From the UHGV virus genome UHGV-0058404: a stretch of 43,055 nucleotides of DNA; one strand, written 5' to 3'. This document shows, in pieces, positions 2,048 to 40,074 of this stretch; positions within the stretch are counted from its first letter, which is position 1; the number at the start of each line of letters is the position of its first letter. The notes beneath the pieces are model-generated. The model made no database searches. It was not told where the DNA came from and saw nothing but the letters and a program-made list of their open reading frames with translations. Both the position numbers and the translations under genes were made by a program. The stretch comes from a virus.

Positions 2048-3247
2048 ATGGCTGAAAATAAATTACAAACAATAAATGATAAATTAGGGCTACAAACAAC
2101 CGAAATTGAAAACTTCGTGCAACCCTTATATGAACGTTTTAAAGAACTTTACCCTGATACAACAAACATTGATACTTATCGCATTGGAATGAACTTTGCT
2201 AAAGCGTTAAGTGAAGTTAAGGTTCCTGTTCCTAATCAAACAGTGCTACAATACTTTGACAAATCTAGTATTTCCGAAGTCTTTGATACCGTGTGCCGTT
2301 GGGGACTTGATCTATCTTGCAAACAAGCAATTATCGTTCCGCGTAAAAACGTGCTAACCTTACAATACGAATACTTTGGTTGGGTTAAAATCGTTAAAAC
2401 TATTTACCCTAACGCTGAAATTACTGCGAACGTTGTCTACGAGGGAGAAAAGTTTAACATTGAGCGTAGACCTAATGGCAAGTTCAAGTTTAATCACGAA
2501 CCTAATGCGAATGCAAGAATACGTGGGGTAATCGTTGGTGCATACTTTGAATGCTTCCTTAAGACTCCAGGTAAACGTGTTGAAAAAACTACTTACCCCG
2601 ATGGTCGCATTACTGAAACAACTACTGAAACTTTCAACTATGAATGCATTGGAACTGAATACATGACTATGGCTGAAATTAGGGCATCATGGAACCAAAG
2701 TGCTAATGGTCCTAAAGTTCACAACGCTTTCCCTCATGAAATGGCTAAAAAGACCGTTATTAATCGTGGCTGTAAGCATATAGTTAACACCTACTCAGCA
2801 TTTACAAGTCTATCAAGCCTAAGCAGTGTAGCAAGCAATTGGAACGATGAAGATGAAGTTGCTGAAGAAAAAGCACCTATCATTGAATACAATTATGTCG
2901 TTGAAACCCCTGAAAATTATAACGAAAAAACCGAAGAAAATACATCGGAAAAAATTGTTAAACAACCTGAGGAAAAAATCGTTGAAACAACTCCTACAAG
3001 CACTGATTATCACGTTGAAAATGGTATGGCTTACTACCCTGGTTGTGAAATGAAACAAGAAATACCAGCTGACAACGAACCTATCTCACAGCCTGTCAAC
3101 GATGACTATTTTGAAATCTCCTATCGTGAATATGCCGACCACAAGAACGAATACGAACCTGATAGAAACTGCAACATACCTGGCTATTCAAAAAGTGGGT
3201 ATAACGCATCAACCAAAATGATTAGAGTTAAGAAACTTACAAAATAA
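2048..3247 (+). CDS. recT: RecT-family single-strand annealing recombinase with acidic C-terminal extension
   Basis: Motifs YFGW, VVYEGEKF, IVGAY, W..S, FPHEMAKKTVINRGCK typical of RecT. Confidence 0.85.
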   Translation: MAENKLQTINDKLGLQTTEIENFVQPLYERFKELYPDTTNIDTYRIGMNFAKALSEVKVPVPNQTVLQYFDKSSISEVFDTVCRWGLDLSCKQAIIVPRKNVLTLQYEYFGWVKIVKTIYPNAEITANVVYEGEKFNIERRPNGKFKFNHEPNANARIRGVIVGAYFECFLKTPGKRVEKTTYPDGRITETTTETFNYECIGTEYMTMAEIRASWNQSANGPKVHNAFPHEMAKKTVINRGCKHIVNTYSAFTSLSSLSSVASNWNDEDEVAEEKAPIIEYNYVVETPENYNEKTEENTSEKIVKQPEEKIVETTPTSTDYHVENGMAYYPGCEMKQEIPADNEPISQPVNDDYFEISYREYADHKNEYEPDRNCNIPGYSKSGYNASTKMIRVKKLTK

Positions 3248-12417: not shown

Positions 12418-13050
12418 CTATGCTAAAGTCCAACCCTTATTAGTAGCTATTGCTTTATCTTCATCAGTAAGTTTTGCAAGATTAGTTGCGCCCATAGTTA
12501 ATGTTTGAGTAGTAGTTACTGTTGCTAGATTATTCAAAATTATTAATAGGTCAGCTCTTTCAAATTTGGTGCTTGCTGATATATCAAATTTGACTTTCAT
12601 TCCAGTCATTAAAATAGATTTAAGAGAAGAACAACCCGAAAATATACCATTCATGTTAGTGACATTACTAGTGTCTAATAAAGGTATAGAAGTTAATGAG
12701 TTACAATTATGAAACATATAATACATATCAGTAACATTACTAGTGTCTAATTGTGGTATTGTAGTTAAACTAGAACAATTATTAAACATATAAGACATAT
12801 TAGTAACATTACTTGTGTCATTAGGTTGAATTAAATCATCTACAGAAGTTCCTTTATAACTGATAAATAAATAACTAGCACTCTGTGTAGCATCTAATAA
12901 ATTCTTTAATGTATTTCCACCACCAGTTGGTATATTTAATATCTTAGCACTAAAATCTTGAGCGTTAATTGGTTGAGTTGCGCCTGTTTTGGTTCTTATA
13001 GCATTGGCTACATCTGTTAAGAAGTCTTGTAGATTATTATTTGTTGCCAT
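12418..13050 (-). CDS. BspA/DUF285-type leucine-rich-repeat protein, putative receptor-binding protein
   Basis: Three 24-aa repeats DTSNVT.M..MF..C.SL..IP.L; N-terminal LTDVANAIRTKTG..PINAQDF anchor. Confidence 0.75.
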   Translation of the reverse strand: MATNNNLQDFLTDVANAIRTKTGATQPINAQDFSAKILNIPTGGGNTLKNLLDATQSASYLFISYKGTSVDDLIQPNDTSNVTNMSYMFNNCSSLTTIPQLDTSNVTDMYYMFHNCNSLTSIPLLDTSNVTNMNGIFSGCSSLKSILMTGMKVKFDISASTKFERADLLIILNNLATVTTTQTLTMGATNLAKLTDEDKAIATNKGWTLA

Positions 13051-27379: not shown

Positions 27380-28933
27380 TCATTTTTCATTTTTACCTCC
27401 AACTACGGGAACATTAGGAGTAGGTTTAGGCTCATTATTAATACCGCCGTTGTTTTCTTTTGCGACTTCGGTATTCTCGTTTTTATTGCCATTTAAGGCA
27501 TGTGATAATTCGATTTGTTCTTCAACATAAAGTTTATCTCCAAACTTCTTAATGAAGTCATCGGAGTAGTTAGAGAACATATCTCCTAAGTTTTGTGTAA
27601 TTTCACTTAATGCACTGACAAAAGTTTTCTTGTCCATTCCGTTGACCTTGTAAATATCAACTAAAGAACTTACAATCTTGTTAATAATATCTGCCATATC
27701 TTTATCACTAACTTCTCGAAGTTTAATAAATGAGATTTGGAATGTTGGTATATCTTCTCCAAATAATGAACGATAAATTATCTTGATTAACTTTTTGTAA
27801 ATCTTATCCATGAAAACATTTTGCACGGTCTTAATTTCAGCATAAGCGTTTTCCGTAGTTTGTTGGTCATTAATTCCATCATTAAATAGGTATGACATAG
27901 GAACACCCGAGCAAGTAGCAAGGTATCTTTCAGCGTTTTTAACTACCTCTCCAATTCCATTTAATGTAACGTTTTTGTAATCAAAACTATCATTTGCTCC
28001 TAAGAATAGCACGTTAGAATAATTTAACATACGTTTCATAAGTGCAAGTTTATTTTTCATAGCATCATATGCTCTTTGTGTTAATTGTGAAACATCGGTG
28101 TCAATTTCTTCCATTTTAACAACCCTTTGTGAACTAATCAAGGTCATATCGGAAGTTGCGTTGACAATTGTTTTATAAAGAACTAGAGGTCTATAAATAC
28201 GTTCAAGTAAACTAACTCCCCAATATTGTTCTATACGTTTTTCAATGTTAGGAAGAATACCTGTGTTGTAGAAAACAAGTCTACTTCTATGCACTGTATA
28301 TTCTCTAGTGTTTTGTCCTCCTATTCTAACCTTATAATATAGGGGTTCTCCAATTTCCATAGGGTCATCTATTCCTGTTTCTCCACCAATAGTATCAACA
28401 AGTTTAATAGTAGGAACACAACTGAACCAACGTTCAAGCGTTTTAAGACCTAGGAAATCTCCCTTTTTAATCGTTGAAAAATCTAAAGGTTCTTTTAGGT
28501 GTCGACCATTATCATCGGTTGTTTGTCCTTTAATGCAAATAAGACAAGCACTTCCACCAAAGCATTCTCCTTGATATATCATTTCATATAAAGGGTAGTA
28601 AAGTTTATCTAGTTCTATTTGTATTTGTTCTAGTTTTTCACTATCAATATTTTTGGAGTTAATATCAATACCTTTGAGTGGCATTGATGCCTTGTAATTC
28701 AATATTCTTCTAAATATCGGTTCGGCTCTTTCAATATTCATAATGTTTGTAACGTTCCAAGTAATGTTTCTTTCAGTTCTAAACTCCTCACTATTCATAG
28801 GATCGGTATAGACATTTTGATTTAACAAGCCACTAAAGAACTCATCACCAATAACGCTTTGCAATAGGTTTTTAATCTCGGCTTGTTGTTCGGGAGTAGC
28901 CATTACTACTTTGTTTTTTGCCATTTGTTCCAA
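27380..28933 (-). CDS. Portal protein (DUF1073 family)
   Basis: FGGS, GEPLYY, VHRSRL, YWGVSLLE and GVPMSYLF motifs; follows the terminase. Confidence 0.85.
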   Translation of the reverse strand: MEQMAKNKVVMATPEQQAEIKNLLQSVIGDEFFSGLLNQNVYTDPMNSEEFRTERNITWNVTNIMNIERAEPIFRRILNYKASMPLKGIDINSKNIDSEKLEQIQIELDKLYYPLYEMIYQGECFGGSACLICIKGQTTDDNGRHLKEPLDFSTIKKGDFLGLKTLERWFSCVPTIKLVDTIGGETGIDDPMEIGEPLYYKVRIGGQNTREYTVHRSRLVFYNTGILPNIEKRIEQYWGVSLLERIYRPLVLYKTIVNATSDMTLISSQRVVKMEEIDTDVSQLTQRAYDAMKNKLALMKRMLNYSNVLFLGANDSFDYKNVTLNGIGEVVKNAERYLATCSGVPMSYLFNDGINDQQTTENAYAEIKTVQNVFMDKIYKKLIKIIYRSLFGEDIPTFQISFIKLREVSDKDMADIINKIVSSLVDIYKVNGMDKKTFVSALSEITQNLGDMFSNYSDDFIKKFGDKLYVEEQIELSHALNGNKNENTEVAKENNGGINNEPKPTPNVPVVGGKNEK

Positions 28934-30681
28934 TTACCTCCGTTCTTAACAACAGTATTTACAAGATAACGCACACAGTCAGGGAAGTGGTCGTGTTCTT
29001 TTAAAGGTATTTCTTCTCCAAGTGCAAGTTTCTTAGGGTCAAAACTATATGAATAACATTCGTTAAGACCTTTTATACAACTATTGTGTATCTTAATCAT
29101 ATTTTTATCAAAGCCATCACGGACAAGCCAAATACCAACAATAGACTTATCGGTTTTCTTGTCAGGTTTTTCTTTTTCTCTACGTTTTCCAACATCGTTT
29201 TTAGCTTTTTTAACGTTTATACCCCTAATTTTCAACTCATTAATTAAAGGTGTAGCACTAGGGTCAACGATAACCGCAATATACTTGTCATTAAAGTGCT
29301 TGTTTCTACTATTTATCATTTCCTCTATCTTATCAGCGTAAAAAGATGTAGTCGGTGGCACATAGTTTCCACCTTTTTCTTGTTGTTCTCTTCCATCAAA
29401 GCGGTATTCTTGCCAAATCTTGCATTCATAATCTTCCTCAACATCGCAGTCGATAACTACAAATGCATTCATCATACCAAAGTCAACAACTAAATAACGC
29501 AAAAAGTTGCTATTTTCAGGAATTGGACCTCTTAATATGTTCTTATCTGTAAGAGTAGGCCATATAGCATTATCACTACTTGCACGAATACCCCTAATTT
29601 CTCTCTTATAAACAATACCCGTTTTGTCATAACTATCTTCTATTTTTTCTCTATCAATATCAGTCATTGACAAGTTATCATCGTGTGTAAAGTGAAAATA
29701 GCGGAAGTTTAAACCATTCTTAACTCCGTTAGGGTTTTCAAAGTAAGGCTCAAAGACAATGTAGTCGTGCCTATACTTTTCGTTGTATGCTTTTTGCATA
29801 ATAAAGTCAACTTCTCTAAGTGAGATAAGGTATTTCCTATATATACTTTGATTTTCAGCAATTTGTCCTGGACTTGTAAGATTAAACTTTTTCATATAAA
29901 CTTGTAAAATCTTTTTTCTACCATCTTCAATTGATTTAGCAAGTTCTCCTTTGTGCTTTGTATACTCTGCACTTAATTGAATTCGTTTTTCATAGACATC
30001 TTTCGCAATATCATCGGTTGCAATTAAAGGTTTTTCATATTTTGAATAATACTCAAACTCTCCTGCTAAAGGGTTTTGCGTATGTATGATTTTTCTCCAC
30101 TTACTAGCGTTAGTTCTTGAGGCACCCTCTTTAATCGTATTGTAATGTTGGTTGATAGCCTCGTTTGCATAATGACTTCCGTAAGATATACCACGGAACT
30201 TTTCACTATCGTTGCTTTCTCCACCACTGAAAAAATGAATTTCTTTGATAACTCCGTAAAAGTCCATAAACATAAAGACAACACGGTCATCGATTTTACG
30301 CTTTTCTCCATGTGGAAGTAAGTATCTAAGACCAAAGCCATCAGCCTCAAGTATGGTGTTAATTGCGTGGTTTATAGTTTGTCCTGTTGCTAAATGTAAT
30401 CTATTAGGACATAACATAAGGTAGTTAGCCCATGCATAAAGGGCATAAACATCTTTACCACCACGCTTACCACCCTCAACTGTTATGTGTGCTATATCAC
30501 GGCTCATTACAGCCTTGAATAATTTATCAGCCTTAGGGTTTTGAAACTTCTTCTTAGGGTCGTTAATAGGTCTATCAAAGGTTCCAGGAGAATATGGAAT
30601 GTTATAACCAATACCATATGTGCATAGAGCCTTATATTGTTCTTGTTTATCGGGAGTAAAGTCGTATCTATTTACAGCCAT
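28906..30681 (-). CDS. terL: Terminase large subunit (PBSX-like) with internal insertion
   Basis: EGGKRGGKD Walker A, FRGISYG, YANEA, TQNP, FHFTHDDN, VDFG, VDPSA and HDHFPDCVRY. Confidence 0.9.
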   Translation of the reverse strand: MAVNRYDFTPDKQEQYKALCTYGIGYNIPYSPGTFDRPINDPKKKFQNPKADKLFKAVMSRDIAHITVEGGKRGGKDVYALYAWANYLMLCPNRLHLATGQTINHAINTILEADGFGLRYLLPHGEKRKIDDRVVFMFMDFYGVIKEIHFFSGGESNDSEKFRGISYGSHYANEAINQHYNTIKEGASRTNASKWRKIIHTQNPLAGEFEYYSKYEKPLIATDDIAKDVYEKRIQLSAEYTKHKGELAKSIEDGRKKILQVYMKKFNLTSPGQIAENQSIYRKYLISLREVDFIMQKAYNEKYRHDYIVFEPYFENPNGVKNGLNFRYFHFTHDDNLSMTDIDREKIEDSYDKTGIVYKREIRGIRASSDNAIWPTLTDKNILRGPIPENSNFLRYLVVDFGMMNAFVVIDCDVEEDYECKIWQEYRFDGREQQEKGGNYVPPTTSFYADKIEEMINSRNKHFNDKYIAVIVDPSATPLINELKIRGINVKKAKNDVGKRREKEKPDKKTDKSIVGIWLVRDGFDKNMIKIHNSCIKGLNECYSYSFDPKKLALGEEIPLKEHDHFPDCVRYLVNTVVKNGGNWNKWQKTK

Positions 30682-31478: not shown

Positions 31479-31500
31479 AACTAACTCCCCCTTTGCCGTA

Positions 31501-31529
31501 AGTATAACACACAAAAATTTCCTTGTCAA
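31501..31529 (-). promoter_or_regulatory. Sigma70/SigA promoter for the packaging/structural operon
   Basis: Minus strand TTGACA-17 nt-TATACT with extended -10 TG. Confidence 0.8.
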
Positions 31530-31599
31530 TACTTTTGCGAAAAAAAGGTAAAAACCCTTTCAAAAAATATGGAAAGTTAGAATTTTGCTTTTTCTATAT

Positions 31600-32032
31600 C
31601 TCCTATCCCCATAGGAAAAAATCGGTTGGTAAGTGAACCTATGCAATTACTAATGGTAGGTATCTATTTGAACCTTGTTGAATACCGGACAAGGGTTGTC
31701 CTGATAAGGTGGCAAATCTTAGATCTAAGTGTCTAAATTGTAAGCAGTCTAACTCTTACTGAATATCTATGATTGTTTTTTTGTGTTGTAGTTTTCGTTT
31801 CTTTTTGAATGCCTAACCAACTATTCATTGCTTAACTACTTGCCACCTTTTATAAACCACTCGTTGTCGTTTCTAAGGTGTATATAGCAATGTGTTCCAA
31901 AATATCTATGTGTTTCACTACAATTCTTAAAAGCCCTAATGGTATCGGTTGGCAATAGACTGAACGTTGTTAATTTCTCGTTGTGGTCTTTTCATTGCTT
32001 TAAAGTCTTACACCTACCTCTCTTTCATATCA
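31600..32032 (-). ncRNA. Candidate large structured ncRNA with two homologous ~143-nt units
   Basis: No ORF in the track; nested and long-range helices whose G-U pairs work on the minus strand; repeated AGGTG/AAGCAATGAA/CATAGATATT/CACCTTA; promoter-like sequence upstream. Confidence 0.55.
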
Positions 32033-32036
32033 CTAC

Positions 32037-32065
32037 ATATATAAGCATAAATATCAATATTGTCG
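32037..32065 (-). promoter_or_regulatory. Possible promoter for the candidate ncRNA
   Basis: Minus strand TCGACA-17 nt-TATATA. Confidence 0.4.
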
Positions 32066-32146
32066 AATGGCGATAAGGTAAAAGGGCTTAATTTTAGGTT
32101 GTGGACCTAGATATGGTCTTTTTCCAAAACTCCTATCCCCCATTTC

Positions 32147-32163
32147 ATACCCCCGGGGGGTGT
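32147..32163. other. GC palindrome, candidate packaging (pac/cos) or terminus signal
   Basis: ATACCCCCGGGGGGTGT in the non-coding gap between the divergent arms, upstream of terS. Confidence 0.4.
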
Positions 32164-32187
32164 TGTTGCGTTCTATTTTCAATTATG

Positions 32188-32290
32188 AGCCGTAAAACGG
32201 GGGTATTTTTAAAAGATAGAGTAAAATATGTGTAATTGCTAAGGGTAGGGCAGTAAAAGTGTAGAAATGGGGCGATTTTGGGGTTATTTG
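32188..32290. repeat. Dispersed phased element, copy C
   Basis: GTAATTGCTAAGGGTAGGGCAGTAAA core with phased A/T tracts. Confidence 0.6.
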
Positions 32291-33084
32291 GTTTTTGGTG
32301 TTTGACAGTTGAGCAGTTGCACTTGATCGCGTTGGTTGGTTGAGTTGGTGGACCTATTGAACTGATACATGATGCTTACTATTTGCTTGTTGCCTTGCAT
32401 CTCTTAAATGTTGTTAACTCTTGATTTGCTTTTCTTTCTTTTCTTTGGTTCTTTCTTTTCTTTCTTTTCGTGAACTGCAAAAAATCGGCAAACATTGAAC
32501 GGATCGGCCTTTTCTTTCTTTATTTAATTTCTTTCTTTTAGTAAAACAATAATTGTTAACTTTTAAATTGTTGTATAACTAAATTATTTTCTATCTTTCT
32601 TTTGGAACTTTTCTTTCTGTCTTTTAAAAATTCGGGGCAGTCGACAAACTGCAACTTTTTTTGATGGTGTTATTTCTTTTTCTTTTTTGGTTCTTTTTTC
32701 TTTTTCTTTGTTGAAAGCCAAAACCGACATAGCGGAACGTTTAACATACATAGCAAGCAACCGACAGCAACTTGTTTAAATCTCAAAGCCTGTTAGCATT
32801 TCATACCACACACCCCACCAACAACAACACCGTTAAAGCCTTGCATTTTCAAACAATTATTTCCTACTTTTGTTAAACATTTTTTTGCGTAAATCTTTTT
32901 CAAAACTCAACGCGTTTGATAACTTGTTTTTGTTTCTCGAACAGTTCAAAAAATCGGTTAAACTCTCGGTCCTCTTTCCTTAAGTTATATATACTATATG
33001 CGTTATATCATTTTGGATATACCACTATATCAGTTTTTGTATAACACTTTTTTAAAATTTTTTAAACTTTTTTAATCAAAACTA

Positions 33085-33113
33085 TTGACAAACGACAATA
33101 AATAGTGTATAAT
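33085..33113 (+). promoter_or_regulatory. Consensus early promoter with upstream A/T tracts
   Basis: TTGACA-17 nt-TATAAT. Confidence 0.9.
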
Positions 33114-39417: not shown

Positions 39418-40074
39418 ATGAATTTTAAACAAGCAGTTGAAGAAATGAAAAAAGGAAAGAAAGTTAGAAGAAAAGGGTGGAAAGATGTGTGGTTTACCCT
39501 TGATAACGGCGGTGCTTTATTACGTAATGTTCCAGGGTCTTATAATAAAAAAGCAACAATTACTGGTCTTGAACCATTGACTTTGGAAAGTGTAGAAAAT
39601 GTTTATGCTAACGATTGGGAAGTAGTTGGAGAAAAAAAGAAATGGTGGGAACCTGAATTAGATGAAAAATATTATATCATTCGCCGCGATGGTGGCATAG
39701 ATTATTATTCCTATGAGGATGATGAAACTGATAAAAATTTAATGGCTATAGGCAATTGTTTTCACACCGAAGAGCAAGCAGATTTTATGGTTGAAAAATT
39801 AAAAGTCATCCACGAGCTAGAAAAGTTCGCGTTTGAGAACAATACTGAAGAAATAGATTGGGATGATATAAACCAAGCAAAATACCATTTAGTTGGAGTT
39901 TTTGGAGATAAAGGAAATAATTATATAAAAATATGTAGCACATTTATGCTTAAGGAACTTCCCTTTAATATTTACTTTATTAGTAAAGAAATTGCAAGGA
40001 AGGCTATCGAAACTATCGGTGAAGACCGTATCAAAAAATATTATTTTGGAGTTGATGAAAATGGAAGAAAATAA
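39418..40074 (+). CDS. DUF2829/Tad2-like N-terminal domain fused to a phage domain of unknown function
   Basis: MNFKQAVEEMKKGKKVRRKGW...ANDWEVV pattern; C-terminal IGNCFHTEEQA domain. Confidence 0.6.
   Translation: MNFKQAVEEMKKGKKVRRKGWKDVWFTLDNGGALLRNVPGSYNKKATITGLEPLTLESVENVYANDWEVVGEKKKWWEPELDEKYYIIRRDGGIDYYSYEDDETDKNLMAIGNCFHTEEQADFMVEKLKVIHELEKFAFENNTEEIDWDDINQAKYHLVGVFGDKGNNYIKICSTFMLKELPFNIYFISKEIARKAIETIGEDRIKKYYFGVDENGRK

Follow-up and report, generated by a model that had tools for sequence, protein, structure and literature searches.

Accessory ("moron") cassettes are well known in tailed phages, and the c4 RNA of phage P1 and the CI RNA of phage P4 are familiar antisense leaders. 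Some large phage RNAs pose an open question as to their function; those described so far multimerize through loop contacts. ROOL and GOLLD, phage RNAs whose function is unknown, multimerize by kissing loops and palindromic loops and form nanocages, and many GOLLD members exceed 800 nt (PMC12286853, in the portions available). The pRNA of phi29 is described, in the available part of PMC5066667, as essential and as conserved in structure across phi29-like phages, which have ~20-kb genomes and terminal proteins.

The element we describe here lies on the minus strand of a 43,055-nucleotide stretch of tailed-phage DNA (the window), which represents nearly all of a complete 43,110-base virus record. 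It is gene-free, spans ~430 nt between a C/G-run motif and the terS promoter, and sits inside a 1.5-kb gap without any ORF of at least 60 aa that separates terS from divergent plus-strand genes (Table 1). Like ROOL and GOLLD it is phage-borne, several hundred nt long and non-coding, and its predicted loop-loop and palindromic contacts could give multimers. It is, however, shorter than they are, is built from an internal two-copy module with swappable halves, and has a narrow distribution; ROOL and GOLLD are often found near tRNA islands, whereas the 43-kb window contains no tRNA. By analogy the element could work like ROOL or GOLLD, but it is not a member, falling below the Rfam covariance-model thresholds for these RNAs and for OLE. 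With phi29 pRNA it shares complementary segments that could pair between molecules, and a position adjoining packaging genes. Unlike pRNA it belongs to a phage whose 43-kb genome encodes a two-subunit terminase together with a portal, a maturation protease and a major head protein, and its occurrence is patchy: it is missing from the related loci L019, L033, L021 and L022, and its core is replaced in the same-species run X19. It resembles a moron cassette in occupying a variable slot that holds small genes in L019 and L033 and is replaced between strains, but the allele in the window has no protein gene and its own promoter is weak. As in the c4 and CI leaders, the predicted transcript carries one loop together with two copies of a short target to which that loop is complementary; the differences are the lack of an Rfam match, the lack of a downstream antirepressor operon, and a terS gene with its own promoter.

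The original prediction, made from sequence alone, was of an unrecognized large RNA, and a duplicated, motif-rich, gene-free element without an Rfam family is indeed what we find. Rfam gave 0 matches at the gathering score over the window, 3 unrelated matches (E 1.1-3.4) on 31500-33100, and one tRNA only across 14 terL loci. Self-cleaving ribozymes (hammerhead, hairpin, pistol, twister) had no Rfam match, and the words that we take to be their cores (CUGANGA, AGAAACA, GUAUAUUAC) are absent. No description of the element was found among the titles and abstracts listed in literature searches. A catalogue of candidate viral RNAs (PMC10690425) holds, in its accessible part, candidates of 29-151 nt, and six motif strings had no match in the searched part of its supplements.

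Table 1. Coordinates of the two-copy element and of its neighborhood in the window, in minus-strand order.
Feature	Position	Strand	Remark
C-run/G-run motif CCCCCCGGGGG, upstream landmark of the variable slot	32150..32160	-	sequence
23-nt direct repeat (GGGGATAGGAG...GAAAAAG), upstream copy	32118..32140	-	brackets element
Promoter-like TCGACA-17-TATATA	32038..32066	-	9/12 consensus, without final T of -10 box
Unit 1 (module copy 1), 142 nt	31874..32015	-	most conserved part in X1
Copy 1 5' half-module AGGUG-N10-AAGCAAUGAA	31991..32015	-	sequence, folding
Unit-1 interior CAGUCUA (31962-31956), CCAACCGAU (31952-31944), UUGUAGU (31923-31917)	31917..31962	-	
Copy 1 3' half-module CAUAGAUAUU...CAUUGCU...ACACCUUA	31874..31910	-	
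Inter-unit linker and unit-2 5' strand	31838..31873	-	X1 hot spot
Unit 2 (module copy 2), with CACCUUA, 144 nt	31705..31848	-	
Unit-2 segments: loop AGUUGGUUAGGC; ACUACAA; CAUAGAUAUU; UAGACUG/UGCUUA	31822-31811; 31792-31786; 31771-31762; 31751-31741		
12-nt palindrome CTTAGATCTAAG	31718..31729	no strand	no listed X1 difference
Hairpin GGACAA/UUGUCC	31687..31701	-	
3' tail: third, looser 3'-half copy (AUAGAUA...AUUGC...CUUACC)	31618..31669	-	
Terminal hairpin UCCUAU/AUAGGA	31588..31617	-	overlaps downstream 23-nt repeat copy
23-nt direct repeat, downstream copy	31610-31588		brackets element
Weak U-rich hairpin, -6.6 kcal/mol, just before terS promoter	31542..31561	-	possible 3' end
Separate promoter of terminase operon, TTGACA-17-TATACT, extended TG	31501..31529	-	downstream of element
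Probable small terminase terS, 265 aa	30681..31478	-	position before terL

Direct reading of the minus strand recovered every motif of the original prediction at its coordinates, including two units that share the order AGGTG-N10-AAGCAATGAA...CATAGATATT...TGCT...CACCTTA, the 12-nt palindrome, and a second CCAACCGAT (31629-31621). All eight helices it had named pair completely in the window. The 3' tail also carries second copies of UACCAUUAG and CCAACCGAU, and both the 5' strand and the unit-2 loop could pair with it instead. The 8-mer GGGGATAG occurs in this genome only in the two copies of the 23-nt repeat. We rejected the idea that AGGUG recruits ribosomes to the AUG in AAGCAAUGAA, the spacing being 15 nt (28 in X1). 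Elsewhere in the genome (20859-20953), a 12-bp inverted repeat starting AAGGTGG encloses the start of a 960-aa gene and would mask its ribosome-binding site.

The duplication is real, and the two-copy architecture exceeds chance. A pair of colinear exact 10-mers shared by neighboring 160-nt segments arose in 17 of 20000 shuffles and is found at ~7 other sites of this genome, and the four direct repeats of at least 9 nt were reached in 8/2000 shuffles. The full pattern (X..Y..Y'..X' twice, with equal X-Y spacing), a test that was defined after the element was seen, arose in 0/3000 shuffles and in 2 of 427 genomic windows, which overlap and both lie at this site. Inverted repeats of at least 7 nt show no excess (11 against a mean of 7.7; 310/2000 shuffles), and the longest helix, 12 bp, was matched by 17 of 300 shuffles. 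Unit 2 is the sole strongly folding part (z of -3.5 on the minus and -3.1 on the plus strand); z for the whole region is -1.47 and -1.36, respectively, and because these values are similar on both strands, folding gives no strand choice.

How the two units are connected is a matter of prediction. The 5' half of copy 1 may pair either with the 3' half of its own copy (local fold) or with that of copy 2 (swapped fold). Folded without constraints, the window prefers the local fold, in which unit 2 has a 12-bp helix, and on 31690-32022 three closing helices have pair probabilities of 0.90-0.97. Constrained folding of 31700-32020 put the swapped core 3.3 kcal/mol above the optimum in the window and 0.5 above it in the close strain X1, and the local fold 2.9 above it in the window and 9.6 in X1; when one of the cross-pairs a/a', b/b' and c/c' was added to the swapped core, energies ranged from -46.7 to -53.7 (window) and from -49.8 to -51.1 (X1). 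The unit-1 interior segments CAGUCUA, CCAACCGAU and UUGUAGU are complementary to unit-2 segments, and in the swapped fold these three "kissing" pairs could each form as nested helices. Intermolecular duplex folding of the element was uninformative at this length.

Across the core a single relative, X1, is available, in a version reconstructed from tables of differences. The X1 contig spans 31659-32030 with 26 substitutions (20 listed) and 2 one-base gaps; the 6 unlisted substitutions are presumably near the contig ends, where the unit-1 5' strand is unreported. Six of the eight helices named earlier and the palindrome are without a listed change (the 5' strand of the first helix being unreported), as are P2 of both units, a/a', the b/b' core and the c/c' pairs; a change at 31813 breaks the b/b' extension. 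Unit 1 has 1 listed difference in 127 nt, compared with 46 in 529 nt of nearby non-coding DNA on another X1 contig, and divergence is far quicker in unit 2 and the tail than there. The linker 31838-31873 has 10 differences in 36 nt, with AGGUG reappearing 13 nt further upstream, and the hairpin 31687-31701 retains a 5-bp stem with its loop and closing pair changed. Eight changes fall in the 12-bp unit-2 closing helix, which loses 5 pairs and one base in register. Three changes in the unit-2 3' strand (31716, 31713 and 31712) remove a wobble and a bulge, so that over 9 nt this strand exactly complements the unit-1 5' strand of the window and could form an uninterrupted 9-bp helix with it (pair probability 0.95), and the new AGGUGU pairs with the unit-1 3' strand, re-forming the middle hairpin (pair probability 0.75). 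X1 shows one-sided changes and re-formed helices only; that no two-sided covariation is seen reflects the use of a single relative with its unit-1 5' strand unreported.

These differences bear directly on the earlier model of two self-closed RNA domains, joined by kissing loops and forming multimers tied to packaging or late control, which we now consider quite unlikely. Its local fold is the minimum-energy fold of the window, its cross-complementary segments are without a listed X1 change and its palindrome is kept; such contacts are, moreover, used by ROOL, GOLLD and pRNA (available portions of PMC12286853 and PMC5066667). However, the closing helix of unit 2 is broken in X1, where the local fold costs 9.6 kcal/mol, and the swapped fold suits both strains. 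The kissing complementarities are near chance (two pairs of cross-complementary 7-mers, P 0.113, 2000 shuffles) and become ordinary nested helices in the swapped fold. The proposed 5'-3' helix GGUAGGUGU/AUACCUACC competes with the unit-1 closing helix and has three changes in X1. The element is also missing from each of the four relatives with upstream DNA, in a phage that has an ordinary two-subunit terminase, portal and protease.

In the window, the element contains no ATG ORF longer than 31 codons, and none of its 5 small ORFs that were checked is on record as a protein. Applying the X1 differences opens one ATG frame of 58 codons from 31828 to 31650, which keeps in play the idea that unit 2 and the tail are the remains of a small accessory gene and that the repeats are incidental. 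The fast divergence of these parts and the small ORFs that relatives carry in this slot would fit such a decayed gene. The frame depends, though, on both one-base gaps and on the change at 31758, and 59 codons were reached by 95 of 3000 shuffles on one strand and by 273 of 3000 on either. Within it the X1 changes, as read from the difference table, show no silent enrichment, and no ribosome-binding site lies at the usual distance. Pieces of the window had no protein record or Atlas match (a search of low power), and unit 1, the most conserved part, has no ATG ORF longer than 19 codons. We regard gene decay as very doubtful.

The promoter-like site of the original prediction is present but has 3 mismatches, and sites of this class occur at chance frequency genome-wide (133 found, 129 expected); it had no match in a strict promoter scan, and five other promoters of this genome have 0-1 mismatch each. 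Its position ~8 nt before the predicted 5' end fits a start near 32030 and is mildly favorable. The U-rich hairpin that might mark the 3' end had no match in a terminator scan. Parts of the region occur in two sequencing runs, one recorded as RNA and one guessed to be RNA, both as contigs. For run X19, recorded as RNA, there is one contig of 6014 nt; it passes at uniform depth through genes as well as through the divergent intergenic region and is therefore evidence of presence, not of transcription. Antisense targets elsewhere in the phage genome do not exceed chance (longest exact match, 12 nt). Upstream of the promoter-like site, repeated CCAAC words at 32331-32349 on the minus strand are complementary to GUUGG of the unit-2 loop.

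If the RNA acted in cis, its unit-2 loop and 5' strand might pair alternatively with unit 1 or with the 3' tail and so set read-through into the terminase operon. Consistent with such a leader switch, CCAACCGAU is present twice, the 5' strand has three possible partners, and a U-rich hairpin lies just before terS, a layout reminiscent of the c4 and CI systems. Yet a strong terS promoter lies downstream of the element, relatives retain this promoter without the element, and the switching segments do not overlap the U-rich hairpin, so that we judge cis control highly improbable.

The packaging genes of the phage are ordinary ones: on the minus strand, terL is accompanied by genes for a portal, a maturation protease and a major head protein. 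The gene that precedes terL (265 aa) is probably the small terminase, judging from its position and from a single Atlas match (Terminase_2 cluster, 0.91); it had no match in Pfam or PHROG. TerL (28906-30681) has 591 aa; PBSX-type relatives of 420-440 aa align over only ~43% of it, a distant TerL subgroup reaches 730 aa, and three homologues (P0027, P0034 and P0048) contain intein-type domains. Between the C/G-run, which may mark packaging start or a genome end as in other phages, and a divergent plus-strand promoter (33085-33113), A-tract-rich repeats (AAAGAAAAGAAA) with strong AT skew occupy 32400-32720 and are possibly bent DNA near the genome end. Further along the genome, a 210-aa protein with DUF285 and BspA-type leucine-rich repeats (12418-13050) closes the tail region, and a 218-aa protein (39418-40074) has an N-terminal Tad2-like (Thoeris anti-defence) domain. 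No endolysin family match was seen among the proteins scanned, a subset of the ORFs, which may hint at a wall-less host.

Relatives were drawn from a TerL alignment of 14 viral, 2 genome and 35 metagenome loci, duplicates included, in which L019, L033, L021 and L022 are distinct loci with TerL identity of 45-68% and sufficient upstream DNA. All four have a 266-268-aa gene before terL, and identical terS-promoter hexamers precede terS in L019 and L033. Motifs like the C/G-run were found in L019, L033 and L021 by script and in L022 by eye. None of the four has the element by blastn or by a single-sequence covariance model, the latter of low sensitivity. Small ORFs fill the slot in L019 and L033, and those of L019 have their own consensus promoters and terminators, as would be expected of an accessory slot. 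In both loci, ~550 nt before terS (2540-3110) lack ORFs of at least 60 aa, had no Rfam match, and carry several consensus promoters and terminators; they may encode small RNAs or peptides. The slot of L021 holds 4-5 GGGGATAAC-type repeats before terS (L021:2969-3135), and that of L022 holds TATAAGATATGGATAT repeats. The GGGGATAAC-type repeats resemble the GGGGATAG core of the window's 23-nt repeat, and possibly the two represent a conserved DNA site of this phage group; they are also similar to what we take to be the DnaA box consensus.

Variation extends into the species itself. In X19 the flanks match closely and 355 other letters replace 31728-32100, and in short X10 contigs matching also ends at 31728 and at 31949; run X20 has no cover of the core and is not counted as evidence. 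The variability of both slot and element argues against a core packaging RNA. The link to packaging suggested earlier is not supported: terS has its own near-consensus promoter, 4/4 relatives lack the element, and X19 has it replaced. We consider a core packaging role unlikely.

Broader searches, with tools that may pass over records very close to the window, returned no homologue. Five motif scans of viral contigs gave 17, 10, 73, 108 and 33 loci, none with other module features or extended similarity; blastn gave 4 short matches in phages and 0 in plasmids; and single-protein scans of viral contigs with TerL and capsid found no relatives. When unit 2 was made into a single-sequence covariance model and run on the window and 44 loci, nothing but itself scored below E 0.097; the model is weak, since not even unit 1 was detected. 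In distant relatives, terS genes share a 27-nt match with unit 1 that is likely chance, its E-value being per subject over 51 subjects.

Some observations count against the accessory RNA that we favor below: the promoter is at chance level, the whole-region z of only -1.47 is similar on the other strand, and inverted repeats are not in excess. It is conceivable, though in our estimate a minority prospect, that the element acts purely as DNA near the packaging start, its repeated words being protein sites or slippage debris and its inverted repeats having been perfected by template switching. The element follows directly on the C/G-run motif, is enclosed by the 23-nt direct repeat, and shows its excess in direct rather than inverted repeats, with a weak promoter and no strand preference; L021 and L022 also have repeats at this place, and among the phage's own proteins is a RecT-like annealing protein. 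The clustered multi-base changes of X1 resemble template switching, which between inverted repeats can homogenize arms without selection (PMC8604942, in the part available). Against this reading, every CACCU strand has an AGGUG partner in both strains, even though the partner is shifted by 13 nt in X1, and the paired arms are nested in order at distances of 110-300 nt. An essential terminase site would, moreover, poorly tolerate the replacement seen in the same-species relative.

The explanation we prefer, tentatively and with somewhat less than even confidence, is an accessory, allele-variable, pseudo-two-fold minus-strand ncRNA that is predicted to be strand-swapped and that may serve as a two-site protein scaffold or decoy. 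Starting from the observed architecture, patchy occurrence and strain differences, and from the predicted fold, we infer transcription, protein binding and multimers. Minus-strand transcription would give an accessory RNA of ~430 nt. Copy 1 would close with its 5' half on the 3' half of copy 2 and pair through its own 3' half with the 5' half of copy 2, so that one pseudo-two-fold molecule would show the conserved AUGAA / AUAGAUAUU junction twice, the "kissing" segments becoming nested stems between the two modules. Most plausibly this doubled junction would be bound by a protein, the RNA serving as a scaffold or decoy and not as a component of the packaging motor. Since one half can stand in for the other, swapping might also join separate molecules into dimers or chains. 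It is tempting, if speculative, to go further and propose a new RNA class with two interchangeable module copies, each half of which finds its partner in its own copy, in the other copy or in another molecule. Such RNAs might act as a topology switch or form RNA-only multimers, and would be exchanged as hypervariable alleles beside the terminase, as for a decoy against a host RNA-binding defence protein; we think this extended proposal unlikely.

In summary, there is a fair, though unproven, chance that the element is a new RNA, with an architecture revised from that first proposed. Should it consist only of DNA-level repeats near a genome end, it would be ordinary. Assemblies frequently contain this phage species (69 TerL and 49 TerS variants, one cluster each), which puts a covariation alignment within reach, and a 430-nt transcript would be easy to probe. 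If the RNA reading is true, the two strains would offer a snapshot of the evolution of a duplicated RNA domain, and homologous modules that exchange strands, with strains favoring different topologies, would represent a new assembly principle.
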